A stretch of DNA of 64,000 nucleotides from an uncultured Bacilli bacterium (lineage in GTDB: Bacteria > Bacillota_I > Bacilli_A > RF39 > UBA660), in NCBI GenBank assembly GCA_934096275.1, contig CAKOLK010000003.1, positions 28,366 through 92,365 of the forward strand, written 5' to 3'. The notes under the pieces are model-generated. The model searched no databases. It saw nothing but the letters and a program-made list of their open reading frames with translations, and was not told the origin of the DNA. Below, piece by piece: positions 1,801-61,123 of the stretch. The position numbers and the translations under genes are program-made. Numbering within the stretch: the first letter of the stretch is position 1; each line of letters begins with the position of its first letter.

Positions 1801-4638
1801 ATGAATTTTATAAAAAATAATTATAAAAAAATAACTCCATTTATAATCATAATGTTAATAGCGATAATCTCATACTCAGTTACACAATCATCATACGCAC
1901 AAACAACCACAAAAACATTTACAAGACAAGAAATACAAGACATGATAGTATCCACTGCAACAAGTTATCTAAGAAATAATACATATTCAGACTACGATCA
2001 ACATGCAATGGATGCATCATCTACCTATAATGGGTCATCAATTACAACATTCAACTGGAGAGACTTTAATATAACACCAGAAATGGTAAGCAGAACTAAT
2101 AACTTTCATGATGACTGTAGTAGCTTCGTAGCACAAGTATTAATAAACTCAATAGATTATGACTTTTCAAATTACTATAACTATACATCAAATACATTCT
2201 ACTTATTTAAAAACTTTACTTACACACAGTCTAAGTCATCAAAAACGACATTTATCGAAGGCTATAAAAGAACAGGAAAAAGTATTTCAACATTCTTCTT
2301 CAATAAATTAGCAAACTCTATAGCAAACGTATCTAAAGGAACAGAATACAAAAACAATACTAATTTTGTAAACTATTACTATGAATTCACTGGAAGTGAA
2401 ACAACTTCTAAAAGAAACACTGTAATATCAAGTGTTAAACAAAGACTACAACCCGGAGACATTGTAGTATACAGACACACTTCATCATCAGGAAGTGCAA
2501 GCGGACACGTTATGATCTATGCCGGAGACTTCTACGACAACAATGGAACAAAAATGACTGGATTCATTCATTCAACAGGAAAAAGCTATGACTTTACAAC
2601 AGAAACACTAAATAGAGATAAATATGCAGTACAAACAGGTACAATGACTGTAAAAATAGATGATATAATAAACGATACCAAAACAACCTCATACATGATT
2701 CTAAGACCTATAAACTATTACTGTTCATCAAAAGATTCATGTAGTCTAACCGTACCAAACAATTCATTAGCAAGACCATCTATGAAAGATTTAAAAATAG
2801 AACAATACATATCCAAAGACAATAAAAATATATCTAAATACAATAGCGTCAATATTAATGATACACTTACATATAATTTAGATATAAAAAATATTAAAAT
2901 AAACCCAATAAAAAACATTACAATAACAGCATCAATACCAAGTAATACAACCTATGTTAGTTGTAATAACGATTGTAAATATAGTAACAATGAAATAACT
3001 TGGACACTAGGTAATAATAGTAATATAACAAACAATACATATAGTTATACAGTAAAAGTAAATAAAGAAAAAACAATTACTAATACAGGTTTTAAAATAA
3101 AAAATCCTGATAATACAATCCTTCAAATGAGTGAATTAAATACCAATATAAATCCAAGTATTAATAATGATCTAGATACTAATGTATTAACAAGTATAAT
3201 AAAACTATCCCAAGAATTAAATAAAAATGGATATCTAACATACGGAACAAGTACAAATGATAATACTTATAAAACAGACATTACTACTATAAATGAAAAT
3301 AATAAAATAACACTTTCATCAGTGGACTATATAAAGTTCTTATACTACAATGCTTATGGAATAGACTTAAGTACCATGACAAAAGATAATATAAAAACAT
3401 CACTATTTAATACTCAAAGCAGTCTATACTCTAGAAAAACTACTAATAGTGATGCTATATCACAAATGCTTGTACCAGGACTATATGGAGGAAGACTACT
3501 TAAAGGAAATGATAACAACGACCGTACAAGATTTATGGTACCAAGCGATCTTGAATTTGGAGACATAGTAACATTCTACACATCAAATGCAACTCTAATA
3601 AATATATATATATATCTAGGACAAGAAAATAACTATCCAACATTCTTAAGAATAGCAAGTGATAACACAATCACAAAACTAACTAACACATCAGCAGAAG
3701 ATTTATTCAATGCATTATATGCTAAAAATCTATTTGCAATATTTAGACCTACAAGATACTACGGAGTAACAATAACCCTACAAGACAATAATAAAAAAGA
3801 TCATATAACACTAGCTAAAAATACAACTTATAGAAATTTACCAATAATAGAAAAAAAATACACTGTAACATACGAATATAACACAACACCTGATAATGAA
3901 TGCAAAGATAAAGATGTAATTGATGATGTATTCGATGGCTGGTATAAAGACTCTACAAAAGTAGATGAAAAAACAACAATTACCGATCAAACAGCACATA
4001 CACTAACAGCAAAATATACAAATAAAGAAATAACATTACCAACTCCAACAAAACAAGGATTTAAGTTCCTAGGTTGGTATAAAGACTCAACATTACAAAA
4101 TAAAGCATCAGAAACTAATAAATACACACCTGAAAGTGATATAACACTATATGCTAAATGGGAAGAAGAACAACCGGACCCATCACCAGAACCAAATCCA
4201 AATCCTCCAAAAGAATTTGACATAACATCAGATGAATTCACTATAAAAGATGGTTATATCTACTTAAAAGAAAATAATAAAGAGTTTACAAGCTATATAA
4301 ATAAATTAAAATATGATAAATCATTTAACTATAACTTAAAACTATATGATAACAATAAAGAAATAACAAATAATATAGTATTTACAGGATCTAAACTAAA
4401 AGCAATAGACAATGACACAGTAATAAAAGAATATATAAACATTGTAAAAGGTGATGTTAATAAAACAGGAACAGTAACAATGGCCGACGTTATGAAACTA
4501 GTAGACTATCTATTTGATAACGACACGATGACTGAAGACTATAACCTAAAAGCAGGAGACGTCAATAATACTAACACAGTAACAATGGCCGATGTTATGA
4601 AACTAGTAGACTACATTCTAGAAGGAGGAGAACTATGA
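1801..4638 (+). CDS. secreted multidomain protein: NlpC/P60-like Cys/His hydrolase domain, Listeria-Bacteroides (Flg_new) repeats, C-terminal type-I dockerin
   Basis: Signal peptide MNFIKNNYKKITPFIIIMLIAIISYSVTQSSYA. DDCSSFVAQV with GHVMIYAGD gives a Cys/His pair. FDGWYKD...LTAKY and FKFLGWYKDS...LYAKW are Flg_new repeats. Two Ca-loop repeats GDVNKTGTVTMADVMKLVDY and GDVNNTNTVTMADVMKLVDY at the C-terminus. Confidence 0.6.
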   Translation: MNFIKNNYKKITPFIIIMLIAIISYSVTQSSYAQTTTKTFTRQEIQDMIVSTATSYLRNNTYSDYDQHAMDASSTYNGSSITTFNWRDFNITPEMVSRTNNFHDDCSSFVAQVLINSIDYDFSNYYNYTSNTFYLFKNFTYTQSKSSKTTFIEGYKRTGKSISTFFFNKLANSIANVSKGTEYKNNTNFVNYYYEFTGSETTSKRNTVISSVKQRLQPGDIVVYRHTSSSGSASGHVMIYAGDFYDNNGTKMTGFIHSTGKSYDFTTETLNRDKYAVQTGTMTVKIDDIINDTKTTSYMILRPINYYCSSKDSCSLTVPNNSLARPSMKDLKIEQYISKDNKNISKYNSVNINDTLTYNLDIKNIKINPIKNITITASIPSNTTYVSCNNDCKYSNNEITWTLGNNSNITNNTYSYTVKVNKEKTITNTGFKIKNPDNTILQMSELNTNINPSINNDLDTNVLTSIIKLSQELNKNGYLTYGTSTNDNTYKTDITTINENNKITLSSVDYIKFLYYNAYGIDLSTMTKDNIKTSLFNTQSSLYSRKTTNSDAISQMLVPGLYGGRLLKGNDNNDRTRFMVPSDLEFGDIVTFYTSNATLINIYIYLGQENNYPTFLRIASDNTITKLTNTSAEDLFNALYAKNLFAIFRPTRYYGVTITLQDNNKKDHITLAKNTTYRNLPIIEKKYTVTYEYNTTPDNECKDKDVIDDVFDGWYKDSTKVDEKTTITDQTAHTLTAKYTNKEITLPTPTKQGFKFLGWYKDSTLQNKASETNKYTPESDITLYAKWEEEQPDPSPEPNPNPPKEFDITSDEFTIKDGYIYLKENNKEFTSYINKLKYDKSFNYNLKLYDNNKEITNNIVFTGSKLKAIDNDTVIKEYINIVKGDVNKTGTVTMADVMKLVDYLFDNDTMTEDYNLKAGDVNNTNTVTMADVMKLVDYILEGGEL

Positions 4639-6560
4639 TAAAAAATATAAAATACCTACTATTTTTAGGACTATTTCTAATTCCATTAAATACAAATGCT
4701 GCATCAAGTAGTGTATCACTAAGCTGTCCATCAACTGCAAACCCAGGAAATACCATAAGTTGCAACATATCAATGAAAACAACCGGAGCAGTAGCAAATG
4801 GAATATCATTAAAATATGATTTCGCAAGTGGCTTATCATACGATAGCTTTACCCCATCATCATCATTTACACCACTAAAAAGTACTGCAACTGGCTTTGC
4901 GCTAAATGGTTCTGGTGGAGTACCATCATCAGTATCAATCGGAACTTTAAGAGTAAAAATATCAAACTCAGTTAACGGAGGTCAAAGTTATAAAGTAACA
5001 CTTAAATCAATTGACGTATCAACATATGATTCATCCACAAATAATTATGCCGATTTATATCCGAACGATGCAACAGCACAAATAAGAATAAAATCATCAA
5101 ACAACAATCTATCAAGCTTATCAGTATCAGGACATGAAATAAACTTCAATAAAAACACAACAACATATACATTAGAAACAACATCATCAAAAGTAACAGT
5201 AAGTGCAACAAAAGAAGACTCATATGCTACTATATCTGGTACAGGAACAAAAAGCTTATCATATGGACTAAACACAATCAAAGTAGTAGTAACATCAGAA
5301 ACAGGATCAAAGAAAACATACACAATAAACATAACAAGAAAAGATACTAGATCAGATGATGCAAAACTATCATCATTAACAGTAAGTAATGCTAATATAA
5401 ACTTTACACCTAATCAAACAATATATAATACATCAGTTGGATCAAGTATATCAAAAGTACAAATATCAGCTAAAACAAACAATGATAAAGCAACATTTAC
5501 AACAGGATATGGTCCAAGAACAGTAAACCTATCATATGGACAAAATACATTCAAACTAATAGTAAAAAGTGAAAAAGGTAACACTAGAACATATACAATA
5601 AATATAACGAGAAAAGATACTAGATCATCAAATAACAATCTATCAAGTTTATCAGTATCAGTAGGCAAAATAAACTTCAATAAAAACACAACAACATATA
5701 ACATAGACACTAAAAGTGATGTAACTAGTGCAACCATAAGTGCAACACTTGAAGATCAAAAATCAACATTTGTGAGTGGATACGCTCCAAGAACAGTATC
5801 ATTAAAAGAAGGATTCAACTCTTTCCAAATAAAAGTTAAAAATGAAAAAGGCACTATTAAAACATACACAATAAACATAACAAGAGAAGACGGAAAAAGT
5901 AGAAACAATAACCTAAAAGACTTAACACTTAGTACTGGTAATATAACATTTGATAAAAATAATTTAAATTATAACGTAACAGTAGAATATGAAATAGAAA
6001 AACTAACAATAAATGCAACTCCTGAAGACTCTAAAGCAAAAGTTACATATCAAAAAGAAAACACCCTAAAAGTTGGAGAAAACAAAATAACAATAACAGT
6101 CGAAGCAGAAAATAAAAGTACTAAAAACTATACAATAACAGTAACTAGAAAAGAAGAAGGAAAAAAACTATCAAACATAAGTAGTCTATCATCATTATAC
6201 ATTGATAACAAACAAATAACTCTAAATGAAAATCAAACAGAGTATACATACCAAACAACACAAACCGCAGCAAACGTAAAAGCAACACCTACAGATCCTA
6301 ATGCAAACATCACAGTAATAGGAAACAATAGTATAAAAGATGGTAGTATAATTCAAGTAATAGTAACAGCAGAAGACCAATCAACAACAATATATAAAAT
6401 AAAAATAGAAAAAAAAGAAGATAAAAACAATACTTTATTAATAATATTAATTCCAACTATAATAATAGTTATTGGTATAATAACATTTGCATTAATAACA
6501 AAAAATAAAAATAAAACAAGAGATATAGACGCAAATCTATTAAACTTAAATAGGAAATAG
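4635..6560 (+). CDS. membrane-anchored scaffold-like protein: putative cohesin domain, 5 cadherin-like beta-sandwich repeats, C-terminal TM anchor
   Basis: ATGA overlap with the upstream dockerin gene. Signal peptide present. The N-terminal domain carries ANGISLKYDFASGLSY, reminiscent of the cohesin IANCDFxxxYD motif. Five roughly 88-aa repeats read LSSLSVS...TYTINITRKDTRS (nt ~5094-6430). Hydrophobic C-terminus LLIILIPTIIIVIGIITFALI followed by KNKNK. Confidence 0.45.
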   Translation: MIKNIKYLLFLGLFLIPLNTNAASSSVSLSCPSTANPGNTISCNISMKTTGAVANGISLKYDFASGLSYDSFTPSSSFTPLKSTATGFALNGSGGVPSSVSIGTLRVKISNSVNGGQSYKVTLKSIDVSTYDSSTNNYADLYPNDATAQIRIKSSNNNLSSLSVSGHEINFNKNTTTYTLETTSSKVTVSATKEDSYATISGTGTKSLSYGLNTIKVVVTSETGSKKTYTINITRKDTRSDDAKLSSLTVSNANINFTPNQTIYNTSVGSSISKVQISAKTNNDKATFTTGYGPRTVNLSYGQNTFKLIVKSEKGNTRTYTINITRKDTRSSNNNLSSLSVSVGKINFNKNTTTYNIDTKSDVTSATISATLEDQKSTFVSGYAPRTVSLKEGFNSFQIKVKNEKGTIKTYTINITREDGKSRNNNLKDLTLSTGNITFDKNNLNYNVTVEYEIEKLTINATPEDSKAKVTYQKENTLKVGENKITITVEAENKSTKNYTITVTRKEEGKKLSNISSLSSLYIDNKQITLNENQTEYTYQTTQTAANVKATPTDPNANITVIGNNSIKDGSIIQVIVTAEDQSTTIYKIKIEKKEDKNNTLLIILIPTIIIVIGIITFALITKNKNKTRDIDANLLNLNRK

Positions 6561-9290: not shown

Positions 9291-9511
9291 CAATATTAGA
9301 CAATTTATAAACAAAATTAATGTATAAAAAAAACAAAAATAAGAACATATAAAAGTAAAATAAAATAAAAACATTGTCAAATACTTGTATAAAACTACTA
9401 AAAGTAGTATATTATATATAAAGAAACACGTTCCTTGAACGTCGACTTCTTGTTGATTTCTAAGTTGTGACGTTTCCCTATATCAGAGAGACGTCGCATT
9501 TATTATAACTA

Positions 9512-9598: not shown

Positions 9599-9786
9599 AA
9601 TTATCACCTCATTTCTTAAAAAAAGATAATGAAGACGGCGCCCAAAGATACGTGCAATATAAATATAACAAATAAATGTTGTGTGTCAAGTTTATTGAGA
9701 GTAGAAAAATCTAACAAGAAATAGTACTTGAAAAAGTACTTTTTTTGTTATAGAATTAATATATAAGAAAATATGGAGGTAAAACT

Positions 9787-11482
9787 ATGAAAAACAAATA
9801 TTCGTATGGGGGGGGGGCGAAATACTTATAACCCTTTAAAAACTAAAGGAAGAAATAAAAAGATAACAACTATAATAATATTCCTAATACTAATAGTAGT
9901 TAGTATCTCTTTTGCTTTGTTTAATCCCAGTATTAATTTACTAGGAAGAAGAAATATAAAAATATCTAAATGTGAACTAGATATAAACTTTAAAGAAAGT
10001 GATGAGTTAATGCTAGTTAGTAAGTATCCTATATCTACAAGACAAGCCCTTGAAGGAGACTATAAACCTAAAACAGTTACTATAACTAATAATTCTACAT
10101 GTGATACAGCGTATTATAAATTAACTATAAAAGATTTAATAAACTCATCTATAAACAAAGATGTAATACAATATCATGTAGTAGATAAACAAAATACTAT
10201 GACGTATAAACTTGGAGATATTAATGGAGATGGAACAATAAAAATTTTTGATGTTACACTTATAAGGAGATATCAGAATGATACAGATAATTATTTTGGA
10301 TTACATTCAAATGCAAGATATGCTGCAGATTTAGATGGCAATGGCAAGATAAATGAAGAAGATGTTACATTACTTAGGCAATATATTTCGAATCCAAATG
10401 GTACTTTTCCCGCAGGCTCTCCACTTGAAGAAAAAACAACAACTAAAGAAATAATAGATGTAAACCCAGATACGTTCTTAATAGAAAATTCATTGGAAAA
10501 AGGACAAACACATGAATATGAAATAATGATGTGGATAAGTAATGTTGCAACAAATACAGATTTATACGTAAATGGAGATACAACAAAACCTATTGAATAT
10601 AAATATGCACTTAATATTGAAGCGTATGATGAAAAAAAGGAAGATGCTGAAATCGTTCCAATACTTAATATACCAGTAGGCACAAACGGTATTGAAAAAG
10701 TAACACATGAAATAGATGATACATTACAAGTAGATAGTAAGTTTGCAACAGAATATAGATATCGTGGAGGAGATTCAGTAGTAAATAACCGTGTAATATT
10801 TAATGATGAGACACGATGGAGAATCATCGGAGTAATACCGACTGAAGATACTTCTGGTAATGTAGAAAATAGAATAAAAATAATAAGAGATGAATCTATT
10901 GGAGAGTACGATTGGAATGAAGATGGTTTAAATGATTGGACAACTGCAACACTTAATACATATTTGAATAATGATTATTATAATACCTTAACAAGTGATG
11001 CTCAAAACATGATAGGAACAACAAAATATTATCTTGGTGGGTATGACTGGAGTGATGATACATTCACATTAGATATAATGTGGCGGTACGAAAGGAAAAA
11101 AGCAAATGATAATTTGGGTATATATTACTATGAAGGAAATCAAATAATGCAAAATGATGCCACTAAAAAGATAGCGCTAATGTATGCAAGTGATTATGGA
11201 TATGCAGCATCAAAAAAATGTTCAAAAGGGTTATTTTATTACAAGGAAGACGCTAATTGTATAACGACAAACAATTGGCTAGATAAATCGCAATATGAAT
11301 GGTTAATACCACAGGGGGTTGATACTAAATATGCATTCAATGTTAGTGATGGCGGTAATATAGAAATCGATGTTGTTAGTTACACTCATGCAGTTCGTCC
11401 AGTCCTAACACTCTCATCTAACGTAAAAATATCCGGAGGATCTGGCACAAGTTCTGACCCATACCAATTACAATTAAACTAA
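9787..11482 (+). CDS. phase-variable surface protein family member A (TM anchor, internal dockerin, conserved C-terminal domain); RBS-linked ATG currently out of frame
   Basis: ggaggtaaaactATG at 9787. G10 tract at 9808-9817. The long ORF is read from the internal ATG at 9806; 9 or 12 G would fuse the MKNKYSYGGG leader to it. Dockerin loops DINGDGTIKIFD and DLDGNGKINEED. Confidence 0.7.
9808..9817 (+). repeat. poly-G (G10) homopolymeric tract at the 5' end of the ORF, slipped-strand phase-variation site
   Basis: 10 consecutive G in a genome of about 27% GC, located between the RBS-linked ATG and the ORF body. Confidence 0.8.
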
Positions 11483-15706: not shown

Positions 15707-15754
15707 TGACATAAAAATAAAAATATGTTAAAATATAACATACAAGGTGGTAGT

Positions 15755-15886
15755 ATGAAAAAAAGACTAAGAAAAGCATTAAAAGAAACAGAAAAAATTA
15801 TAAATGATAAAAATAGAAAAGGATACAAAATAATTAAAGAACTATTTAAAGCATTAGAGGACAATAAAAAACACATAAAAAAATAA
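15755..15886 (+). CDS. small basic hypothetical protein (43 aa)
   Basis: aaggtgg RBS. Peptide MKKRLRKALKETEKIINDKNRKGYKIIKELFKALEDNKKHIKK. Followed by a bidirectional hairpin. Confidence 0.3.
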   Translation: MKKRLRKALKETEKIINDKNRKGYKIIKELFKALEDNKKHIKK

Positions 15887-15912
15887 AGATGATTAATCTA
15901 AATATCATCTAT

Positions 15913-16359
15913 TTATTTGAGTTTATAACCTAACTTTTCTAATTCTAATATAGCAATCGCAGATAACTCGTTTTTTGATAATTTACTAATATCAAAGAAA
16001 TCTGCACCAAGAGAATCATCATTTACTTCATTTACTTCTACTTCTTTTTTAATTTCGTTAGTATAACTTAAAACTTTAAAGAAAATACCAATATGATGAA
16101 CTTTTACAAAAACATCTTCCTTAACTTGCCAGTCGAAAAAGACAGAGTCAGCATCAAATAATTGGTAATCAATTACTTTAATACCAACTTCTTCCATTAA
16201 CTCTCTTTTTAAAGCATCTTCAGGCTTCTCACCAAACTCTATTGTCCCACCAGGTAAATCTAACTTTCCATTATATGGACCACCAAACTTCTTAATAAGT
16301 AAAACCTTATTGTCTTTAATAATCAATCCATAAGCTCCTAAATGTTTCATTTCTTTCAT
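15913..16359 (-). CDS. NUDIX hydrolase
   Basis: Nudix box GGTIEFGEKPEDALKRELMEEVGI. Confidence 0.85.
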   Translation of the reverse strand: MKEMKHLGAYGLIIKDNKVLLIKKFGGPYNGKLDLPGGTIEFGEKPEDALKRELMEEVGIKVIDYQLFDADSVFFDWQVKEDVFVKVHHIGIFFKVLSYTNEIKKEVEVNEVNDDSLGADFFDISKLSKNELSAIAILELEKLGYKLK

Positions 16360-16490
16360 TATTTATTCCCACTTTCTTATTTCTATTCAGTATAATTATA
16401 ACACACTTGGAGCGATTGATAATAAAATTAACATTATAATCTTAATTTACTTATTAAAACATATATGTTAAAATATAACTGGTGATTTAA

Positions 16491-21555: not shown

Positions 21556-22260
21556 ATGTTTAAGTTTAATGAAGAAAAAATAAATAATTTAACAAGTGAA
21601 AAACTACAAAATAAAATGGAAACATTTAAAAATAAAATGGAAGAAACATTTGATAATAAAGATTTAAAATATATGAATGATAATCTAGAAACACTAAGAA
21701 TCTTTATATTAAAATCAAAACTATTTCAATATCCATATAAAGCAATGTATAACAATTTATCAAATGAATTAATGATTCTAGAAGAAGATGATACAATATA
21801 CCATGAACTATTACATCTATCATGTAATAATAGAAAAAGTAACAACACCATAAGAGGTTTTGCTCACTATACAAAAAAACAAAAAAACATCTTATCATTT
21901 GGTACTGGATTAGATGAAGTATATACTGAGATATTAGCAAACAGATTATTTAATAAAGAAATAAATGCAACAACTACAAAAACAGTAGAACTAGTATTAC
22001 TATTAGAACAATTAATAGATGATTTACCATCACTATATCTTAATTCAGACTTATATGAATTAGTTTTAGAACTAAGTAAATACACAAGTCTAAATGAATC
22101 ATTAGAGTTCATATACAACATTGATAGACTATATACATTAGAACAAAATATAAAAAATAATGATAAATACAATGAAATATATAGTAAAACACTATACTTC
22201 TTAAAACAATACCAATATAAAAGAAACTATCAAGAACAAAAGAAAAAAGTCCTAAAATAA
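21556..22260 (+). CDS. HExxH-motif hypothetical protein, tandem paralog 1
   Basis: IYHELLHLSCNN. Shares blocks with the next gene: FKNKMEETFD, YTEILANRLF, KTVELVLLLEQLIDDLPSLYLNSDLYELV, YNIDRLY. Confidence 0.5.
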   Translation: MFKFNEEKINNLTSEKLQNKMETFKNKMEETFDNKDLKYMNDNLETLRIFILKSKLFQYPYKAMYNNLSNELMILEEDDTIYHELLHLSCNNRKSNNTIRGFAHYTKKQKNILSFGTGLDEVYTEILANRLFNKEINATTTKTVELVLLLEQLIDDLPSLYLNSDLYELVLELSKYTSLNESLEFIYNIDRLYTLEQNIKNNDKYNEIYSKTLYFLKQYQYKRNYQEQKKKVLK

Positions 22261-22349
22261 AGGAATACTTTTGTTCTTTTTATATACATAAAACTTGTAA
22301 TAAAAATAATTATATGTTATTATATTGTGCAAACAGGGAGGGTATTCAT

Positions 22350-23144
22350 ATGCTTAAAAAAGATCAAGAAAAAATAAAATCACAAGAAGAAAAATTACAA
22401 GAACAATTAGAAATATATCAAAAAACATTAGAAGAAATTCTTGGGGGATCAATTCAATATGAGAATATAGACAAAAAAATAGAAATATTTAAGAATAAAA
22501 TGGAAGAAACTTTTGACAAAGAAGATTTGAAAAATATGAATGAAAATCTAAAAACATTAAAAATTCATATATGTAAACCATATTTATCAAAAATATTGCA
22601 ATATTTTACAAAAATGAAAGGATACTACTTACCAGAAGATAACACAATAGTACTTCTTGAAGAAGGCAATGTAATATATCATGAGTCATTACACTTATCA
22701 TGTAATACTGGAAAAAGTGAAAAAAACATTATTGGATTTGATCGCTATACAAACAAAGATAAAAAAATATTATTCTTTGGTAAAGGATTAAACGAAATAT
22801 ATACTGAAATACTAGCAAATAGATTATTTGATAAAGAAATAAAAATCATCACTAATAAAACAGTAGAACTAGTATTACAATTAGAACAATTAATAGATGA
22901 TTTACCATCTCTATACCTTAATTCAGATTTATATGAATTAGTTATAAAACTAAGTGAATATACAGACATAAATGAAGCACTTGATTTTGTATACAATATT
23001 GATAGATTATATGAAATAGAAACTAAAAAGAATGTTAAAAATCGTATCGAAAGATATGTTTCAGTATATCATAAAACACTACGTTTCTTAGTACAATGCC
23101 AATCTAAAAAAGAAAAACAAGAAAAGAAGAAAAAAACAAAATAA
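22350..23144 (+). CDS. HExxH-motif hypothetical protein, tandem paralog 2
   Basis: RBS gggaggg precedes MLKKDQEK. IYHESLHLSCN plus the same conserved blocks. Confidence 0.5.
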   Translation: MLKKDQEKIKSQEEKLQEQLEIYQKTLEEILGGSIQYENIDKKIEIFKNKMEETFDKEDLKNMNENLKTLKIHICKPYLSKILQYFTKMKGYYLPEDNTIVLLEEGNVIYHESLHLSCNTGKSEKNIIGFDRYTNKDKKILFFGKGLNEIYTEILANRLFDKEIKIITNKTVELVLQLEQLIDDLPSLYLNSDLYELVIKLSEYTDINEALDFVYNIDRLYEIETKKNVKNRIERYVSVYHKTLRFLVQCQSKKEKQEKKKKTK

Positions 23145-24278: not shown

Positions 24279-25553
24279 ATGGTTTTACCCGCAGATAGTT
24301 ACACAGTAATGAATAAAAGTTTAATAACAGATATAGATAAAAAAACACTAATAGATTTATACCAACCAATAATAGGCAATAAAGCAGTATCACTATACTT
24401 CACACTATTAAATGATTTAAATAAACAAGAAATAATATCAACACCAAATACCCATCATCATTTACTAAGTATTATGCAAATGTCTCTTGAAGAAATAGTA
24501 TCATCACGTGAAAAACTAGAAGCCATTGGACTACTTAGAACATATCTAAAAAAAGATAATATTAATAACTATGTTTATATACTATATTCACCATTACAAC
24601 CAAATGAATTCTTAAATCATCCAATACTAAACGTTGTTTTATACAATAACTTAGGAAAAAAAGAATATCAAAAAATATTAGAAACATATAAAACACCAAG
24701 AATAACTTTAAAAGACTACAAAGAAATATCATTAAAGTTTGATGAAGTATTCTCAAGTGTACCAGTATCTAATATAATACCAAATGAAGATATAATATCT
24801 AAAAATAAAACAGAAATAACATTTAAAAATGCAATAGATTTTGAACTATTAATATCTGGTATAAATAGTAATATGATAAATGAAAAGATATTCACAAAAG
24901 ATATAAGAGAACTAATTAATAATTTATCATTTATTTATAATATAGATGTACTAACTATGCAAAATCTAATTAAAACAAGTATTACTGAAAAAGGTACAAT
25001 AGATAAAGAAACTCTAAGAAAAAGTGCTAGAAACTTTTATCAATTTGAAAACAGTGGTAATCTTCCTACATTAATCTATTCAAAACAACCAGAACATTTA
25101 AAAAATCCAACTGGAGATGTATCTAATAAAGCCAAAATGATTTATACTTTTGAAAATACTAATCCATATCAATTTATAAAGAGTAAATATAAAGATGGAA
25201 AAGTAATAAAAAAAGATTTACTATTAATCGAAGAACTTTTAATAGATTTAAAACTAACCCCTGGAGTAGTTAATGTTTTACTTGACTATGTATTAAGAGT
25301 AAACAATAAAAAACTAAATAAAGCATATGTAGAAACAATTGCTAGTCATTGGAAAAGATTAGGTATAGAAACAGTAGAAGAAGCAATGAATATATGCATA
25401 AAAGAACATAAAAAGACTATTAAGAAAGTACCTAATACAAACACTAAAACAAAAGAATCAGTACCAGAATGGTTTAATGAACAAATAAATAAAGATGAAT
25501 TAAAAGAACAAGAAGAACAAGAATTAAAAGATTTATTAAAACAATACTCTTGA
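24279..25553 (+). CDS. replication initiation/membrane attachment protein (DnaB/DnaD-like, DnaD C-terminal domain)
   Basis: The C-terminal block LLIEELLIDLKLTPGVVNVLLDYVLRVNNKKLNKAYVETIASHWKRLGIETVEEA resembles a DnaD/DnaB_2 domain. Confidence 0.5.
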   Translation: MVLPADSYTVMNKSLITDIDKKTLIDLYQPIIGNKAVSLYFTLLNDLNKQEIISTPNTHHHLLSIMQMSLEEIVSSREKLEAIGLLRTYLKKDNINNYVYILYSPLQPNEFLNHPILNVVLYNNLGKKEYQKILETYKTPRITLKDYKEISLKFDEVFSSVPVSNIIPNEDIISKNKTEITFKNAIDFELLISGINSNMINEKIFTKDIRELINNLSFIYNIDVLTMQNLIKTSITEKGTIDKETLRKSARNFYQFENSGNLPTLIYSKQPEHLKNPTGDVSNKAKMIYTFENTNPYQFIKSKYKDGKVIKKDLLLIEELLIDLKLTPGVVNVLLDYVLRVNNKKLNKAYVETIASHWKRLGIETVEEAMNICIKEHKKTIKKVPNTNTKTKESVPEWFNEQINKDELKEQEEQELKDLLKQYS

Positions 25554-25608
25554 AAAACTTCCAGAAATAGTATAAAATTAACTTATAATAAACTATGGAG
25601 GCAAAACT

Positions 25609-27832
25609 ATGAAAAACAAATATTCGTATGGGGGGGGGGGAAAAAAATTCTAGTAAAATAAACCCTTTATTTAAAGATATAAAAGAATATAATAAATATC
25701 TATTATCATTAATAGGTATTTTTGTACTATTACTTTCAGGTATTATTTCTTATAATTATACAAATACTTCTTATGCAAAATGGAGTAGTAGTGTAGAATC
25801 TAAAAATATTATTAAATTGCATGTTAAATCTAATTTAGATGAAAGTGGGGCAAATGAACCTAAAATAACATCAAACATGATACCGGTATATTATGATGAA
25901 ACAAATAGTGTATGGAGAAAAGCAGACGTTAAAAATAGCAAAGAACAATACAAATGGTATGATTATAATAACAAGATGTGGGCAAATGCAATTACTACCT
26001 TTCCTTATGAAGAAAAAGTTACTGACACTATTAAAAAAAATATTAATGTAATGCCATATTCACTTACATCTGAGTCAAGTAATAATGCAAATACTGCGGT
26101 AAATTCACAATACAAAATGTCATTTACTACAACTAAAGCTAGTACCTTTTCTTTTGATTACAGTATGCTAAAAGGTACGAAAACATCAAAATTTCAAGTA
26201 ACAATAAACGGTACTACTGAAGTAAACAAAGACTTTTCAGGTAATTATAGTGATACTGTTTTTGGAGGAACTTATACCGACTCATTCTCTAAAAATCTTG
26301 AAGCAAATAAGAAATATACAGTTATCATAAATGCAGAAGTTACATCATCTAATGCAGGTGCAGATAATAGTATTACAGTGTCAAATATAAATTTAACTAA
26401 TGAATATACAAATTTTTCATATGAAAATAGTGGTTCAAAATTTACAGTGAATTATTATCTGAGCCATTCATATGCACTTGATCAAGTCACTGGTAAATAC
26501 GTATTAGATTTAATCAATACCTCGTCAGAATATTTGAAAGATAGTTATATATGTCCCAATACTACTTCAAATATTTGTGATGAAATATATAAAATAGTTG
26601 ATATAACTTATGGACACATGTGGTCTGCAGAGGTAACTGATGCAACAATAAATAGCTATGTATCATATACATCTAAAAATATAGAAAATGAATTCTCAAA
26701 AAAAGAAATTGGTGAAGAAATACCATTAGATAAAATAAGCACAATGTGGGTCTGGATACCAAGGTATACATATACTTATCTTAATACAAATACACCACAA
26801 GAAATAAGCATAAAGTTTGAAAAAGGAACATCAAGTAGTGGTACAATAAAATGCGTTGATAACGTAACATATACTGGTACAACTTCAGAAACATGTACTG
26901 ATACAACAAATTCATCATTAAAAACAGGAATTTCCACATATACGCATCCAGCATTTACATTTGGGGAAGATGAATTAACAGGAATATGGGTAGGCAAATT
27001 TACTAATAGTAGTTACATAATAAAAAAACCAGATGAAATAGTAGAAAATAATATAATAATAAAACCAAATGAAACATTTTTAAAATTAAGTGCATCAGAG
27101 GCGTTTAAAACAATAAGGACAATGGAAAAAACAAATAATATGTATAAGTTTAATCAAAAAAATGATACCATGTTTAATTGGAATGGGGAACTTTCATATG
27201 ATTCGAACAACATAGATACACACATGATGAAAAATATGGAATGGGGAGCAGTAGCATATTTTTCGCATTCTAAATATGGTAGATGTACAAATAGTATTTG
27301 TGAAGAAATAACAATTAATAATTGCACTGAAGCTATAACTGGTATTGGTGGTAATACAGTTGATGCAAACTACAGTTCATCAGCGTGTACAACCACTGAA
27401 AATAAATACAATGGTTCAAAAGGAAAAAAAGCAAGTACTACAGGAAATATATATGGAATATATGATATGAGTGGCAACGATACACTCGTAATGGGTAATG
27501 TAACCAGTTCATCAAATCAATTTCAACCATCAAAAGCAGGAAATTGGAATACAACAACATATCCTTTAGCAAAATACTATGATAATTATTCAAATGGAGG
27601 ATCAAGCGATACTTATCAACGTGGAAAATTAGGAGATGCAACAGTTGAAATGGCTCCAACACGAGCATCGAGTGATAATTGGTATTCAGATTATACTATT
27701 TTTCCATATTATACAGAATCATGGTTTATTCGAGGAGGAAGCTATGTTAGTGACAGTGATGCAGGTATTTTTGCATTTGAAAGTGGTAATGGTGATGACA
27801 AAACTTCTAGATCAATATTAGTTATAAAATAG
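25609..27832 (+). CDS. phase-variable surface protein family member B; RBS-linked ATG currently out of frame
   Basis: ggaggcaaaactATG at 25609. G11 tract at 25630-25640; 10 or 13 G would fuse the MKNKYSYGGG leader to the 734-aa ORF. A TM helix follows the leader. Confidence 0.7.
25630..25640 (+). repeat. poly-G (G11) phase-variation tract
   Basis: 11 consecutive G. Confidence 0.8.
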
Positions 27833-27903
27833 CCTTTTGCATAAAATAAATAATCATCTAAAAAATGGTTAAGTTTTTTAATAAAAACCCATAAAAAATA
27901 ACT

Positions 27904-27963
27904 TTTTCGTGCATTTTGTACGAAAAAACCAGTAAAAATGCGTACGTTTTGTACGAAAATTAC
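27904..27963. promoter_or_regulatory. two direct copies of the near-palindromic 13-mer TTTTGTACGAAAA, spaced 33 bp apart
   Basis: Copies at 27914-27926 and 27947-27959, each preceded by TGCG/TGCA. Confidence 0.4.
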
Positions 27964-28053
27964 TAAAAAAGCACTTTATATAAAACAATAAAAGACAAAA
28001 GTATCATCTAATTTACATTATGATGATACTTTTATTTTAAAATCTTCCAACTA

Positions 28054-28089
28054 TTATTGATAAAATATCTTATAAATGATAAAATATCT
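28054..28089 (+). promoter_or_regulatory. tandem direct repeat GATAAAATATCTTATA x2 immediately upstream of the ireB RBS
   Basis: Two 16-bp copies separated by 5 bp. Confidence 0.4.
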
Positions 28090-28116
28090 TATAGATATTT
28101 CTAAAGGAGTGATAGT

Positions 28117-28365
28117 ATGGAAGACAAGACTATGGTTTTTAATATTGACGATTTAAATAACTACATGGTCACTGAAACATTACTTAATGTAAAAAACAAT
28201 CTTGAAGAAAAAGGATACAAAGGAATAGACCAAATAGTAGGCTATCTTCTTACGGGAGATGAAACATATATTTCTAATTATAAAGATTCAAGAAAAAAAA
28301 TACAAAGTATAGAACGTGAAATAATCATAAAGACACTTGTTAAAAACTATCTAAGAGATTTATGA
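28117..28365 (+). CDS. ireB: IreB family regulatory phosphoprotein (UPF0297)
   Basis: GYLLTGDETYISNY, about 82 aa, followed by ruvX. Confidence 0.8.
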   Translation: MEDKTMVFNIDDLNNYMVTETLLNVKNNLEEKGYKGIDQIVGYLLTGDETYISNYKDSRKKIQSIEREIIIKTLVKNYLRDL

Positions 28366-33364: not shown

Positions 33365-35902
33365 ATGAAAAGATGTGAAGTAGATAAAAATAAACTTTCT
33401 CCAATGATGTTACAATATTTAAACATAAAAGAACAAAACGAAGATGCAATCATCTTTTTTAGACTTGGAGATTTTTATGAAATGTTTTTCGAAGACGCAG
33501 AATTAGTATCTCGTCTTTTAGAATTAACCTTAACAGGAAAAAATTGTGGTTTAGAACAAAGAGTACCAATGTGTGGTATACCATACCATGCTTATTTAGG
33601 ATACTTAGAAAAACTAGTTAGTTTAGGATATAAAGTAGCAATATGTGAACAATTAACACCACCTGATAAAAAAGGAGTAGTAGAGCGAGGAGTAGTGCAA
33701 ATAGTAACCAGAGGTACCCTTATGGACTCCTCTGCATTAGATGAGAAAACTAATAACTATATAGGAAGTATCTATGACTATAATCATTGCTATGCTATAA
33801 GCTATGCTGATATATCAACCGGAGTTATGTACTCAGTTCTAATAGACTATGATGAAGAAAAACTAATTAATGAAATAATAAGAATAGATATAAAAGAACT
33901 AATTGTAAATGATAAAATAAATCGTAAGATAATTAATACACTAAGAGAAAAATACAATATCTTAATAACTATAAGTAATAACTTTCTTGAAAATAAATAT
34001 GAACATACCTATGAAAACATTCAAGATATTAGAATTACAAACTCTATAAAACATTTACTATTCTATCTTCAAGAAATGAAAAAAGGAAACTTAAACCATC
34101 TTCAAAAAAGTATTATTATAGATAAAAATGATTCATTAGAAATAGATATCCATTCTAAAAGAAACCTTGAATTAGTAGAAACTCTAAGACTAAAAGAAAG
34201 AACATATTCACTTTTATGGATGCTTGATAAAACAAAAACAGCAATGGGATCTAGACTACTTAAAAAATGGATAGAAAGCCCTTTAGTAAATAGACAAAAA
34301 ATAGAAAAAAGATATGAACTAATATCAACACTACTTACAGAATTTATCCTAAAAGAAGAACTAAGAGACTTACTAAACAATGTCTATGACTTAGAAAGAC
34401 TATCAGGAAGAATAGCATATGGTAACTTAAATGCTAGAGACTTAATCCAATTAAAAAACTCAATCAAAACATTCCCAGAAATTAAAAAAATATTAAAAGA
34501 AATAAACTATGAAGATACATTTGATACTCTTGATGACTTAAAAGACTTACTAGAAAAATCAATAAATGAAGATGCACCAATAACCATAAAAGAAGGAAAT
34601 ATTATAAAACCAGGTTATAACGAAGAACTAGATAATCTAAAAAGTCTTTCAAGCGGAGGAAAAGATTTTATCCTAAAACTAGAACAACAAGAAAAAGAAC
34701 GTACAGGTATTAAAAACCTAAAAGTAGGATTTAATAAAGTATTTGGATACTACATCGAAGTATCTAAATCAAATATAGATCAAATAAAAGAAGAATATGG
34801 CTATGTAAGAAAACAAACTCTTACAACTGGAGAAAGATATATAACTAGAGAACTAAAAGAAAAAGAAGACATAATATTAAACTCTGAAGAAAAAAGTATA
34901 GCTATGGAATATAAACTATTCATAGAAATAAGAGATGAAGTAAGAAAATATATTACAAAAATACAACAAGCAGCAAAAGTAATAAGTGAAATAGATGTCT
35001 TAGTATCCCTTGCCAATGTCGCAGAACAAAATAACTTTACAAAACCAACCCTAACAGAACAAAGAAACGTTTATATAAAAGAAGCAAGACACCCAGTTGT
35101 CGAAGTAGTATCTAAAAAAGAATATGTTCCAAACGATATAATAATGGATGAAAAAACTAACATCCTCTTAATAACAGGACCTAACATGAGTGGTAAATCA
35201 ACTTATATGAGAATGTTTGCCATAATAGTAATAATGGCCCAAATAGGATCATTTGTACCTGCTAAAGAAGCAAAACTACCAATATTTGATAAAATATTTA
35301 CAAGAATCGGTGCAAGCGATGATCTAGTAAGTGGAGAATCAACATTCATGGTAGAAATGAAAGAAGCTAATAATGCTGTATCAAATGCCACAAAAAATAG
35401 TTTAATACTATTTGATGAACTAGGAAGAGGAACAGCAACATACGATGGAATGAGCCTTGCCCAAGCAATACTTGAATACATTCATGATCATGTAAAAGCA
35501 AAAACATTATTCTCAACCCATTACCATGAATTAACAACCCTTGATAAAAAACTAAGAAATCTAAAAAATATCCATGTAAGCGCTATCGAAGAACAAGGAT
35601 CAATAACATTCTTACATAAAATAAAACAAGGACCAGTTGATAAAAGTTATGGTATACACGTTGCATCATTAGTAAACCTTCCAGATGAAATAATAACAAG
35701 AGCAAAAGAAATACTAGATGTATATGAAAATAAAAAACCTAAAAAAGAAATATATGAACAAACAACATTAAACTTAGACTTTAATACCCAAGAAGAATCT
35801 AAAATAGAAAAAAGATTAAAAGAAATAAATCCTCTAGAAATAACCCCACTAGAAGCCTTAAACATTCTAGATGAATTAAAAAAAGAATTAAAAGAAAAGT
35901 AG
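33365..35902 (+). CDS. mutS: DNA mismatch repair protein MutS
   Basis: LGDFYEMFFEDA; Walker A GPNMSGKST. Confidence 0.95.
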   Translation: MKRCEVDKNKLSPMMLQYLNIKEQNEDAIIFFRLGDFYEMFFEDAELVSRLLELTLTGKNCGLEQRVPMCGIPYHAYLGYLEKLVSLGYKVAICEQLTPPDKKGVVERGVVQIVTRGTLMDSSALDEKTNNYIGSIYDYNHCYAISYADISTGVMYSVLIDYDEEKLINEIIRIDIKELIVNDKINRKIINTLREKYNILITISNNFLENKYEHTYENIQDIRITNSIKHLLFYLQEMKKGNLNHLQKSIIIDKNDSLEIDIHSKRNLELVETLRLKERTYSLLWMLDKTKTAMGSRLLKKWIESPLVNRQKIEKRYELISTLLTEFILKEELRDLLNNVYDLERLSGRIAYGNLNARDLIQLKNSIKTFPEIKKILKEINYEDTFDTLDDLKDLLEKSINEDAPITIKEGNIIKPGYNEELDNLKSLSSGGKDFILKLEQQEKERTGIKNLKVGFNKVFGYYIEVSKSNIDQIKEEYGYVRKQTLTTGERYITRELKEKEDIILNSEEKSIAMEYKLFIEIRDEVRKYITKIQQAAKVISEIDVLVSLANVAEQNNFTKPTLTEQRNVYIKEARHPVVEVVSKKEYVPNDIIMDEKTNILLITGPNMSGKSTYMRMFAIIVIMAQIGSFVPAKEAKLPIFDKIFTRIGASDDLVSGESTFMVEMKEANNAVSNATKNSLILFDELGRGTATYDGMSLAQAILEYIHDHVKAKTLFSTHYHELTTLDKKLRNLKNIHVSAIEEQGSITFLHKIKQGPVDKSYGIHVASLVNLPDEIITRAKEILDVYENKKPKKEIYEQTTLNLDFNTQEESKIEKRLKEINPLEITPLEALNILDELKKELKEK

Positions 35903-36756: not shown

Positions 36757-36856
36757 ATAAATCATTGAAAAACGCTCAAAAATATTGTATTATTAATTTA
36801 TAAGAATAATAGACAATATTTTTTAATTTTTGTCTAAAGATTAAGGAGGAAAAAAT

Positions 36857-38348
36857 ATGAACAAATATTCGATTGGGGGGGGGGCAAAAATTAACTAACC
36901 CTAATAGAAAGAAAGTGCTATTTATGATATCTTTATCATTATTTATGGTAGCAATATTATCTTTTGGGGCATACGCCTTATGGAATAGTGAACTACTTAC
37001 TGGTAATAATAGTATAACTACAGGACAAGTAAAGATGAGTTATACTGAATCAAATGAAATAGGAATGAATAATGCATTACCTATTAAAGATAGTGAGGGT
37101 AAGGTATTAACTAATTACTTTGATTTTAAAGTTCTTTCTTATATTAAAACAAGAGCAAATGATGATACACAAAGAAAACTAAATTATAACATAGTACTAG
37201 AACCATTAACAGTAGAAACACCTTTAAACGACAATGAGATAAAAGTGTATCTAACTATGGTGGAGAATGGAAATGAGACAGTAGTAGTTGAACCTACAAC
37301 AATTGATCAACTAAATAATAAAGTTTTAAGTTCTAAAGAAGAAATATTTTCAAATAATAAAGCAGAAGTAGTAACAAGTTATAGACTTAGAGCTTGGATT
37401 GATGAGAGTGTAGATACAACTAAACTTAATGAAAAGAAATATAGTTATAGATTTAGAGTAAATATTAATAATGAAGCTGCACCAGTAAAAGAAGATCATG
37501 CACTTACTTTTGCTAAATCTAAAGTTGGAACAGATGGATTAGAACAAATAACTCATACAATAGATAATACATTACAAGTAGATAGTAAGTTTGCAACAGA
37601 ATATAGATATCGTGGAGGAGATTCAGTAGTAAAAAATTATGTAACATTCAATAATGAAACATGGAGAATAATTGGAGTAATACCTACTGAAGATACAGAT
37701 GGTAATGTGGAAAATCGAATTAAGATAATAAGAGATGCATCTATAGGAAATATGGAATGGAATACTACAGAAGATACAACAACTAGTTCATATAATAACT
37801 GGGTAACAGGAACATTAAATACATACTTAAATAATGATTATTATAATACATTAACAAGTGATGCAAAATACATGATAGGGACAGCAAAATATTATCTTGG
37901 GGGATACAATACTTCACAAATAACAACTGATGTAATGTGGCAATATGAAAGAAAAAATGAAGCAAATAGAACAGGTTACTATTATGGAACAAACCCAATA
38001 ATGTTAAATGATACAAGTAAAAAGATAGCAATAATGTATGCAAGTGATTATGGATATGCAGCATCAAAAGAATGTACAAGTAACTTATTTGATTATGATG
38101 ATACAAGTTGTAAAACAACAAATAACTGGCTAGATAAGAGTGAAACTACATGGTTACTTGCACAATATTCTGATAGCCACGAACACGCATTTTATATAGA
38201 TAGGGGAGAGTACGTTGCTCTGCCTAGTTCTAATGGATATGTATATGGTGATATTTACGCAGTGCAACCTGTCCTAACTTTATCATCCAATGTAAAAATA
38301 TCAAGTGGCTCAGGTACAAGTTCTGACCCATACAAATTAAGCCTATAA
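36857..38348 (+). CDS. phase-variable surface protein family member C; RBS-linked ATG currently out of frame
   Basis: aaggaggaaaaaatATG at 36857. G10 tract at 36875-36884; 9 or 12 G would fuse the MNKYSIGGG leader to the 491-aa ORF. C-terminal domain is homologous to member A. Confidence 0.7.
36875..36884 (+). repeat. poly-G (G10) phase-variation tract
   Basis: 10 consecutive G. Confidence 0.8.
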
Positions 38349-54668: not shown

Positions 54669-55565
54669 ATGAATGAAATAGATAAGACATACCTACAAAT
54701 TGAAAATAAAGTATTAAATCACGAAGTATATCAAAATGTAAAAGATTATTCCAAAGCAAAAGAAAAGATAAAAACATATTTAGAAGTTGGAAGTCTACTT
54801 AACGGTGTAGATACCAAATACGGGAAGAATGTAATAAAAGATTATTCTAAAAGACTAACAATTAAATTCGGTAAGAAATATTCAACATCATTATTATATA
54901 AAATCAAACAATTTTATATAATAATAGAAAAAGTCCCGACAATGTCGGGAAAATTAACATGGAGCCATTGATATGAAATGTTATCTTTTGATGACGTAAA
55001 TAAAATAGTATATTATGTAAATCAATGTGAAATTTATAATTTAGATGTCAGAGAATTAAGAAATAGAATAAAGTCTAATGAATATGAAAGATTACCCATA
55101 GATGTAAGAAATAAATTAAAAAGTAGAAATGAAATAAAAATAATAGACTTTGTTAAAAACCCTATTCATATTAGAAATAATGATAAAAAAGAAATTATAT
55201 CTGAAAAAATACTACAAAAGTTAATACTTGAGGATATACCAGCATTTTTAAAAGAATTAGGTAATGGCTTCACTTTTATTGATAATGAATATAAAATTAA
55301 ATTAGATGATAGATATAATTATATAGATTTGCTTCTATATAATATTAGGTATAAGTGTTATGTAGTAGTAGAATTAAAAGTAACAGAACTAAAAAAAGAA
55401 CATACAGGTCAAATTATGACTTACATGAATTACATCAATAAAAATATAAAAACACTAGAAGAAAATGGAACAGTAGGTATTATTATTTGCAAACAAGATA
55501 ATGAGTATGTAATTAGATATTGTTCTGATGATAGGATAATTGCTAGAGAATATGAACTTATATGA
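54669..55565 (+). pseudogene. YhcG/DUF1016-family PD-(D/E)XK nuclease gene interrupted by an in-frame TGA (54969-54971)
   Basis: ORFs 54669-54971 and 54978-55565 are in the same frame and together align end-to-end with the intact paralog at 55904. TGA replaces the TTT (Phe) of the ...SWSHF... block. Confidence 0.6.
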
Positions 55566-60482: not shown

Positions 60483-60513
60483 TTTTTTAACAAGAATATG
60501 TTATAATTATTTT

Positions 60514-61123
60514 CAACAAATGGCACATTATTCTAGTCAATAATTTATTACGAAGGTGGGGCTAAAAATCCACTAAAGAGCACATCGATGAAGTCCTTGG
60601 TGTTTGCTTTATACGCCCAGTTTGGGGTGGATGCTGAGGGTTAAGAATTTATGGGCGACTATAATGGCATATAGCAACCGACCCATTTATTCGTGGAGAC
60701 TTATTATTGTGAGAAGCCTATACAGATAAACTTGACGGACTTTTTACGAAATAAGTAAGAACCTATTATGTGGCGAAAGTTATGAATAGAGTAGCTTGGC
60801 TTGAGTGGTTATTTGGGATTATGGATAAGTTTTTTGTTACATGGCCAGTGATAAATAATTTGGTAACCATATGAAACTATAATTGCAAAAGAGCATAGTA
60901 ATAATAATTATTGTCGGGGAAAACCCCTAGAGTGACATCTCATAGGATTGCAGTGCGTACTAAGTGGTAATCAAGTCGTAGATATGGTGACATACTACTA
61001 TTTCTTTTAAAAGGGAACTGCTACACTGGTAACGGTAAGTAAGAAATAGGGAAATCCAACTTGACCTAAGACGTAAAGTTAACTATGACATAGCCATTCT
61101 TTAAGACCTTTGGGTCTTTTTTT
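60514..61123 (+). ncRNA. candidate large (~610 nt) structured non-coding RNA with own promoter and terminator, unclassified
   Basis: TTGATT, 17-bp spacer, TG-TATAAT at 60479-60507. No ORF of 60 aa or more on either strand across 720 bp. GC is 40-47% in sampled 60-nt stretches versus about 27% genome-wide. GGGG-AAAA-CCCC hairpin at 60916-60927. Terminator aagacc-tttg-ggtctt plus T7 at 61103-61123. Confidence 0.45.

Follow-up and report, generated by a model that had tools for sequence, protein, structure and literature searches.

This paper concerns a gene that we call locus B, and above all the short block of DNA at its 5′ end, in a 64-kb stretch (27% GC) of DNA from an uncultured human-gut Bacilli bacterium; that whole stretch is "the window" in what follows. 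Locus B has a promoter-like site, a Shine–Dalgarno sequence (SD), an ATG, a leader of seven codons, and a run of 11 Gs, after which comes an open reading frame (ORF) of 734 amino acids (aa) that the ATG, as the DNA stands, does not reach in frame. The same arrangement is found at two other places in the window, loci A and C. In other words, what kind of gene is this, and how did copies of one 5′ end come to stand in front of different proteins? The features needed for the argument are these, in window coordinates, all on the plus strand.

25550–25578, +, promoter-like site of locus B, TTGAAA–17 nucleotides (nt)–TAAAAT, a consensus match whose −35 element shares bases with the stop codon of the DnaB_2-domain gene upstream
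25597–25601, +, SD of locus B, GGAGG, 7 nt before the first ATG (ATG#1)
25609–25629, +, leader of locus B, ATG AAA AAC AAA TAT TCG TAT (MKNKYSY), from ATG#1, the SD-served start
25609–25653, +, short frame-0 ORF of locus B in its present (OFF) state, MKNKYSYGGGGKKF and a stop, in the frame of ATG#1
25630–25640, +, G11 tract of locus B, a putative slippage-prone switch, with one G more than would bring ATG#1 and the long ORF into one frame
25641–25647, +, A7 run directly after the G tract, likewise variable in length (the orthologue L021 has A6)
25628–27832, +, long ORF of locus B, 734 aa from a second start (ATG#2), with a predicted cytoplasmic tail, one transmembrane (TM) helix (aa 18–45), and a β-rich ectodomain
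9787–9817, +, leader of locus A (ATG#1 at 9787) and its G10 tract (9808–9817), OFF, in frame at G9
9806–11482, +, long ORF of locus A, 558 aa, with a TM anchor, dockerin type I, and DUF6273
36857–36884, +, leader of locus C (ATG AAC AAA TAT TCG ATT) and its G10 tract (36875–36884), OFF, in frame at G9
36873–38348, +, long ORF of locus C, 491 aa from a TTG, its C-terminal 320 aa 58% identical to those of locus A

The Leader and the Tract

A first-pass annotation of this DNA had reported the same leader at A and B, and it is indeed the same: the 28-mer AAAACTATGAAAAACAAATATTCGTATG has exactly two copies in the window, both on the plus strand, at 9781–9808 (A) and 25603–25630 (B), where 100 shuffles put the number expected by chance at 0. 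At B, the final base of the 28-mer is already the first G of the tract, so that the leader proper is 27 nt followed by G11. Exact identity between the two loci runs on for 37 nt (9781–9817 = 25603–25639); upstream of it come a single T/C mismatch and then 8 further matching bases, TATGGAGG, and on either side of this shared 5′ block the similarity fades. The annotation had missed a third copy, locus C, in which the ATG at 36857 opens AACAAATATTCGATT and leads to a G10 tract at 36875–36884.

These tracts are very odd objects in this DNA. The only runs of G or C of at least 6 in the 64 kb are the three at A, B, and C; the G-run spectrum goes from 22 occurrences of G4 and eight of G5 through nothing at all from G6 to G9 to two of G10 and one of G11, and the longest C run is 5. 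The number of G8 windows expected is 0.03, and GGG makes up just 4.5% of the glycine codons in the window's ORFs. The gap from G5 to G10/G11, together with the rarity of GGG, makes the G tracts a distinct, nonrandom class, and at G11, G10, and G10, they have the length at which such runs are hypermutable (about 7–8 or more Gs or Cs, far over background). At locus B, the C that usually follows the tract (G9 CAAAAT) is missing, which leaves the composite run G11A7, and an orthologue from another strain (L021; sequences fetched for comparison carry L numbers) has G10A6. With the C lost and both runs variable between strains, locus B appears to have two neighboring slippery runs rather than one.

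Promoter, Start Codon, and Frames

The promoter-like site of locus B scores 10/12, the joint best in a scan of 25300–28200, and A (9728–9756) and C (36765–36793) are preceded by the same TTGAAA-17-TAnnAT arrangement; all are consensus matches only. Common to the three loci also is the spacing of 7 nt from GGAGG to ATG (SD at 9775–9779 in A and at 36845–36849 in C). Read from this SD-served ATG, frame 0 ends after 13–14 codons, as MKNKYSYGGGGKKF at B, MKNKYSYGGGAKYL at A (14 codons each), and MNKYSIGGGAKIN at C, each followed by a stop. The long ORFs of A, B, and C all lie in the +1 frame relative to that ATG, which means that all three are OFF by one extra G; at B, a tract of G10A7 would bring the long ORF into register with ATG#1. 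The tract begins at codon 8 of locus B, where the gain or loss of one unit shifts the frame, and the wrong frames meet stops 5–9 codons after the start of the tract at essentially every locus of the family described below.

The long ORFs can begin only at an ATG or TTG made by joining TAT or ATT to the first G (ATG#2), 26 nt from the SD. The 734-aa ORF given by the first-pass annotation for locus B does exist, but its ATG is not the place where translation would start; that is the upstream ATG at 25609, and from there, the gene as sequenced is OFF.

We also considered an RNA switch at the tract and rejected it. Folding of 25586–25700 gives z = −0.23 relative to shuffles, which is to say no structure, and Rfam has nothing at the loci; with neither a structure nor a known RNA family, a switch at the level of RNA is unlikely. 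No terminator was found after the short ORF in a scan of locus B.

One other element of the promoter region should be mentioned. A palindrome, AGTACTT-GAAA-AAGTACT followed by T7 (9723–9746, +), encloses the −35 TTGAAA of the family promoter, and this conserved element recurs upstream of many paralogues (L002, L011, L019, L024, L025, L027, and L028); locus B lacks it. Its role could be to end upstream transcription, as a weak terminator, or to bind a regulator, as an operator.

The Encoded Proteins

The proteins of A and B (558 and 734 aa) had been called unrelated, and the ORFs are as described, with no detectable similarity between their products (best BLASTP E = 0.95). The predicted structure of the B protein consists of the TM helix at aa 18–45 and a β-rich ectodomain (predicted local distance difference test score, pLDDT, 74), for which there is a weak match to a CBM35-like fold; Pfam, NCBIfam, and PDB sequences gave no hit. 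In none of A, B, or C does a Cys follow the TM helix, and there is therefore no lipobox cysteine. From the predicted TM helix and the domain hits, the products of all three loci may be exposed at the cell surface. Two possible resemblances, that of the ...SYA(x)(W/F) motif, which follows the TM helix, to a SipW/TasA-type signal peptide and that of GIYDMSGN...RGGSY in the C terminus of B to an FGE-sulfatase motif, found no support in family searches, and we do not claim them.

The window holds two more predicted surface proteins, both without poly-G: one of 945 aa (1801–4638, +) with Listeria–Bacteroides repeats, DUF11, and a C-terminal dockerin and one of 641 aa (4635–6560, +) with five cadherin-like β-sandwich domains. 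Dockerins are thus present in the 945-aa protein and at locus A, yet the window showed no cohesin to partner them.

Locus B in Other Strains

What does the same gene look like elsewhere? We defined the B site by synteny, with the DnaB_2-domain gene upstream and IreB, RuvX, DUF1292, and YceG downstream. In L021, whose flank is 93–97% identical, the tract is G10A6 vs. G11A7 in the window, so that both are out of frame but in different frames. In L034, the tract is G9, and a 739-aa protein, 95% identical to B, reads straight through from MKNKYSYGGGQ. In a sister lineage known from 11 assemblies, whose protein is 90% identical, the tract is interrupted, as GGAGGAGGG, AGAGGAGGG, GGAGGGGGG, or GGAGGATGG, and these interrupted tracts are always in frame, mostly giving 738 aa. 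By their sequence, they are putative nonslippery, "locked ON" versions of the switch.

The in-frame G9 and interrupted alleles point to the upstream ATG as the true start and to three glycines as the ON register. Together, the orthologues show, at the level of assembled sequence, that ATG#1 would be the real start and that tract length varies between close strains. The leader is, then, neither confined to the loci first noticed nor invariant: with the ORF intact, the B site has G9, G10A6, G11A7, and interrupted tracts, and the A site has G10 and G11. Were the out-of-frame arrangement programmed, as in ribosomal frameshifting or transcriptional slippage, every orthologue should have it, and this is not so, as in-frame alleles exist; nor did we find a stimulatory RNA structure for frameshifting. 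Some leaky slippage on the G run may nonetheless occur.

The B site can also be empty or otherwise occupied. The DnaB_2 gene of L045, L046, and L047 runs directly into the IreB intergenic region, and positions 9491 to 9519 of L045 correspond to window 25551 to 27880. In the metagenome-assembled genome (MAG) CAKOJO (L017), the same 5′ end is found at the B site on a different body. The segment concerned is the following.

25552–27879, +, whole locus B cassette, beginning with the promoter and ending ∼47 nt beyond the stop codon, absent in L045, L046, and L047

A Family of Such Loci

The leader followed by G7 as a search pattern retrieved 10, 6, and 3 sites, 19 in all, in three MAGs that come from Hadza gut samples and are labeled "uncultured Bacilli bacterium" and 13 in gut metagenome contigs. 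Viral contigs gave no match to it, and a phage origin of the module, which we had considered, was set aside. Because AACAAATATTCG was the search pattern, its conservation among L001–L031 is partly by construction; protein-based hits and a scan based on G runs alone are independent of it. Over the window and the loci fetched to that point, all 37 G runs of at least 7 sit at a family leader, 3 in the window and 34 others, the latter in three gut MAGs and several metagenomes.

Nine of these 37 tracts are G9, 24 are G10, and four are G11. Every one of the nine G9 alleles is in frame with the SD-served ATG (GGG GGG GGG CAA AAT...); in G10 alleles the long ORF is in +1 and in G11 alleles in +2, compensated cases excepted, and nearly all of the out-of-frame alleles keep the long ORF intact. 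The number of members in frame ranges from 0 to 3 per assembly. The databases tell the same story at the level of protein: homologues of both cargo classes start either with leader+GGG(G) or with MGGG, and the in-frame alleles of other strains read MKNKYSYGGGQ.... The MGGG starts are what a gene caller is forced to when only ATG#2 is open to it, and the two kinds of start thus mirror tract states in many independent assemblies.

Probable Exchange of the 5′ Module

One comparison is with a near-identical strain, represented by the 104.5-kb scaffold L044 (ERZ28615129), and it covers locus A only. Over window positions 1–21482, there are only 11 differences, and all of them fall within 9791–9937. 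The leader is ATGACAAACAATAATTCGTAT in L044 vs. ATGAAAAACAAATATTCGTAT in the window, the tract is G11 vs. G10, the codon after it is CAA vs. CGA, and six more substitutions lie in the region coding for the tail and the TM helix. The probability that at least 8 of 11 differences fall in a fixed 121-nt window is 1.6e-16. A donor-like leader is present in L002, and the patch looks like a short conversion tract from a paralogue. Locus C offers a comparison of another kind: in L045 its orthologue has a body 87.6% identical and the same promoter, and it has no module. The two segments are as follows.

9791–9937, +, patch of 147 nt with all 11 L044 differences (10 substitutions and the G10/G11 indel), gene-conversion-like
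36796–36901, +, module of locus C (5′ untranslated region, UTR; SD; leader; tract; tail), in place of which the L045 orthologue has a plain start (MDNNKKKIL...)

The first-pass annotation had proposed that the switch module is conserved independently of its cargo and has perhaps spread by recombination. Every comparison made here supports the proposal. The module precedes at least three classes of N-terminal body, which are combined as mosaics with two unrelated classes of C terminus; the orthologue of locus C does without it; the B cassette is present in some strains and absent in others; and the near-identical strain differs only in the 147-nt patch. Where the annotation fell short was in treating the cargo as one unit. 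The cargo is separate from the module, as stated, but is itself modular, its N-terminal anchor and C-terminal domain being shuffled separately. The first 66 residues of B recur at 83–91% identity on paralogues of ∼345 aa with C termini of the A/C type; the N-terminal 209 residues of C recur on L018, which has a C terminus of the B type; and L003 and L031 have B residues 2–122 at 94% identity, with another promoter/leader type and a diverged C terminus. Within each N-terminal class, some database homologues have the leader and tract and some do not.

Is the leader kept for its peptide? Some members read the leader DNA in another frame, as KTNIR(I/M)GGG instead of KNKYSYGGG, which suggests conservation of DNA, through descent or conversion, rather than selection on the peptide. 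It is possible, and from the comparisons above we offer it tentatively, that the 100–150 nt of the module are a portable contingency cassette that short-patch recombination installs on, exchanges between, and removes from surface-protein genes, whether these are orthologous or otherwise unrelated.

The positions of the family members on the chromosome vary as well. In L023 (ERZ857629 NODE-11492), a locus A-like member (leader+G10, tail QNTYNPLKSKGRN...) follows the cadherin-like gene directly; the equivalent place in the window, just downstream of 6567, has an unrelated ORF of 312 aa, so that the chromosomal positions of family members differ between strains.

A Proposed Mechanism and Its Rivals

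We think it very probable that locus B belongs to a multilocus family of phase-variable, membrane-anchored surface proteins, driven by a homopolymer and equipped with a recombining 5′ switch module. The module would consist, in order, of a sigma-70-type promoter, a short 5′ UTR, GGAGG and ATG, six or seven leader codons (M-K-N-K-Y-S-Y), 9–12 Gs read as three or four glycines, a short basic tail, and a TM helix. Slipped-strand mispairing during replication would change the length of the G run by one unit at a time, and at locus B that of the A run too. Translation would always start at the SD-served ATG: a tract of the right length, which is G9 in most members and G10A7 at B, would let the full protein be made, and the gene would be ON; with one or two extra Gs, a stop 4–6 codons past the tract would turn it OFF. 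In the DNA as it stands, all three genes would be OFF, B at G11A7 and A and C at G10. Since the tracts would change independently, a population would show shifting subsets of these proteins, which is phase variation or, if one prefers, bet-hedging. Recombination or gene conversion between loci would reshuffle the module and the cargo domains on top of this.

What carries the argument is the anatomy of the module, its frames, the tract polymorphism between strains, the locked in-frame alleles, and the mosaicism. From these, we infer high-frequency, reversible switching and its adaptive value.

Several facts pull the other way, and it is best to have them in one place. Most family loci (27 of 36) are out of frame, and A, B, and C are off by the same extra G. 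All tract lengths were read from the consensus of metagenomes assembled from short reads, in some cases at 4–12× coverage, and poly-G is error-prone. The uniform +1 G and the out-of-frame excess could come from a systematic miscall or from a G10 state that is expressed in some other way; in G10 alleles, the long ORF shares its frame with the ATG or TTG that arises from TAT+G or ATT+G. The only grounds for surface exposure are a predicted TM helix and domain hits. Finally, cross-talk during assembly among the 5′ ends of paralogues, and not a true conversion, could have produced the 147-nt patch in L044.

The alternative that comes through best takes G10 as the working state. ATG#1 would then begin a leader peptide of 13–14 residues (an upstream ORF), the tract would tune expression to high, low, or off, and the long ORF would be reached from the overlapping ATG#2 or TTG, by reinitiation, or by +1 ribosomal or transcriptional slippage. 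G10 is, after all, the commonest tract (24/37); the homologues of locus A start with MGGG in 24 cases and with leader+GGG in 12; with G10, both main leader variants yield a start codon (TATG or ATTG) that reads into the long ORF; and attenuation-like control of a downstream operon through a repeat-bearing leader peptide is reported from a Firmicute, in Pil1 of Streptococcus gallolyticus (PMC3894217). However, the SD is 26 nt from ATG#2, nothing SD-like is nearer, and ribosomes coming from ATG#1 would pass over it. The G9 alleles, the interrupted alleles of the sister lineage, and an inferred four-glycine (G12) allele all join the leader in frame to the body, and leader variants such as ...YSTGGG and ...HSYEGGG would yield no canonical start. 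There is neither a terminator nor a significant RNA structure after the short ORF, and a mode at G10 is also what ordinary poly-G contingency loci of Campylobacter jejuni have. We regard this explanation as unlikely.

A second possibility is that the genes are truly in frame and constitutive and that the frame disruptions are errors of homopolymer length in sequencing or assembly. The shared +1 G offset of the three window loci, the low coverage of several source contigs, and the frequent breaks of contigs beside the tract (L005, L009, L021, and L029) are what one would expect of such errors. Errors do not explain why G9, G10, and G11 coexist at different loci of single assemblies (CAKOQD and CAKOJO), why the tract is such an extreme compositional outlier, why independent assemblies give in-frame and out-of-frame protein starts alike, or why interrupted, nonslippery alleles occur in the in-frame register only; and even if some calls are wrong, a run of 9–12 Gs at this place is intrinsically unstable. 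The chance that errors account for the whole pattern is, we believe, very small. Hardly credible at all is that these are decaying pseudogenes of an expanded family with ordinary inactivating frameshifts, for although most copies are out of frame, L010 is further truncated, and L030 is a leader-like remnant only, the tract length is the sole lesion in nearly every complete out-of-frame copy, always at the same site and with an intact ORF of 340–730 codons, and close strains hold in-frame and out-of-frame alleles of one orthologue.

Other Features of the Window

Several other features of the window are recorded here. A full-length ornate large extremophilic (OLE) RNA (RF01071, 398 bits, model positions 1–616 of 616) lies at 60504–61113 (+), and the ORFs downstream of it, 61203–61937 and 62119–62649, might encode its protein partners. 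Tandem paralogues with 60% identity and no assigned function occupy 21556–22260 and 22314–23144 (+); their junction (∼22282–22473) aligns poorly or not at all with L021 and L045, which suggests another variable spot. Two ORFs of 100 and 195 aa (54669–54971 and 54978–55565) together match the 293-aa ORF at 55904–56785 (+) with 43% and 73% identity, and from this alignment the pair is evidently a split or frameshifted duplicate of the neighboring gene. In L045/L046, a RelB/ParE toxin–antitoxin pair (562–1135) has a PRC-domain gene on one side and the signal peptidase II gene on the other; the counterpart in the window (∼15716–16439) is other sequence, including a NUDIX gene on the minus strand, and the site is thus a small strain-variable island.

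Comparison with Known Systems

Phase variation through repeats has been described mostly in pathogens with small genomes, such as Neisseria, Haemophilus, Campylobacter, Helicobacter, and Mycoplasma, and the switches documented in gut commensals are mostly invertible promoters. Neisseria has, in PilC, a poly-G run within the region of the signal peptide. The Opa proteins of Neisseria are reported to come from ∼11 opa genes around the chromosome that each switch stochastically (PMC3745409), and recombination between loci is reported to make their alleles mosaic (PMC13183285). The likeness to our family lies in the many loci for surface proteins (predicted ones here), in the mosaic alleles, and in a repeat tract inside the region coding for the N-terminal leader, where its length shifts the frame. 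However, Opa has CTCTT pentamers and is an outer-membrane β-barrel of Gram-negatives, whereas here the repeat is a homopolymer, the hosts are Bacilli, and the products are anchored by a single TM pass, with dockerin/DUF6273 or an unannotated β-rich ectodomain and no sequence relationship to Opa. A, B, and C had no match to Opa or any other Pfam family of outer-membrane proteins; the likeness is one of mechanism only.

For C. jejuni NCTC11168, 29 poly-G/C tracts of at least 7 are reported; in the same report G8 was counted 257 times, G9 214, G10 431, G11 77, and G12 9, with switching at ∼1e-3 per division (PMC4965091). Our tracts, at 9–11 Gs with a mode of 10, match this hypermutable range (PMC4965091). 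Here as there, tracts of 8–12 Gs with a mode at G10 stand in reading frames at many independent loci per genome in a low-GC gut organism where such runs are otherwise absent. There, in contrast, they occupy varied positions in unrelated genes, mostly for glycan-modifying enzymes, whereas here one leader-plus-tract module stands at the extreme 5′ end of a paralogous, mosaic family of surface proteins. C. jejuni is not known to have mismatch repair; MutS is present here (window 33365–35902; Pfam MutS I–V on the L045 orthologue).

Closer in descent are the Mycoplasma families, since their hosts are relatives within the Bacilli in the broad sense. In Vlp of Mycoplasma hyorhinis and in the poly-A frameshift switches Vaa of Mycoplasma hominis and P78 of Mycoplasma fermentans, the length of a homopolymer does the switching, and a conserved 5′ region (promoter and N-terminal membrane-targeting sequence) is carried on divergent external domains. 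Our family resembles the Vlp-type families in that a conserved 5′ block is joined to variable ectodomains. It is unlike them in that the Vlp tract is poly-A in the promoter spacer and the products are lipoproteins, whereas here, the tract is poly-G in the coding region; A, B, and C have no lipobox Cys, and their tracts do not lie between −35 and −10, so they are not of the Vlp/Vsp type. Pil1 of S. gallolyticus is a surface structure reported to be under the control of a short leader peptide, encoded ahead of the structural genes, through the number of repeats that this peptide contains (PMC3894217). That leader peptide is a separate ORF that acts by attenuation through a transcription terminator, whereas here the leader would be the N terminus of the protein itself, as the in-frame and locked alleles have it, and no terminator or structure follows.

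The family is thus a member of none of the Opa, PilC, Campylobacter, or Mycoplasma Vlp protein families. The mechanism that we propose is a textbook one and in no way new. The family and its host lineage, however, appear to be undescribed; in the literature, we found no paper on either.

What It May Mean

For an uncultured lineage of Bacilli that is common in human gut metagenomes (the Hadza included), the picture is one of 3–10 or more putatively independently switchable surface-protein genes that share one reusable poly-G module. There is a practical side to this. Standard annotation with MGGG... starts would be wrong for these genes, and metagenomes would reveal their expression state through the length of the tract. 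Under pressure from immunity or phages, the lineage probably alters its surface. If the module is indeed a portable cassette, phase variability would be a transferable property within a lineage of gut commensals, and the family would offer a natural system in which to see how a switch module spreads among genes.

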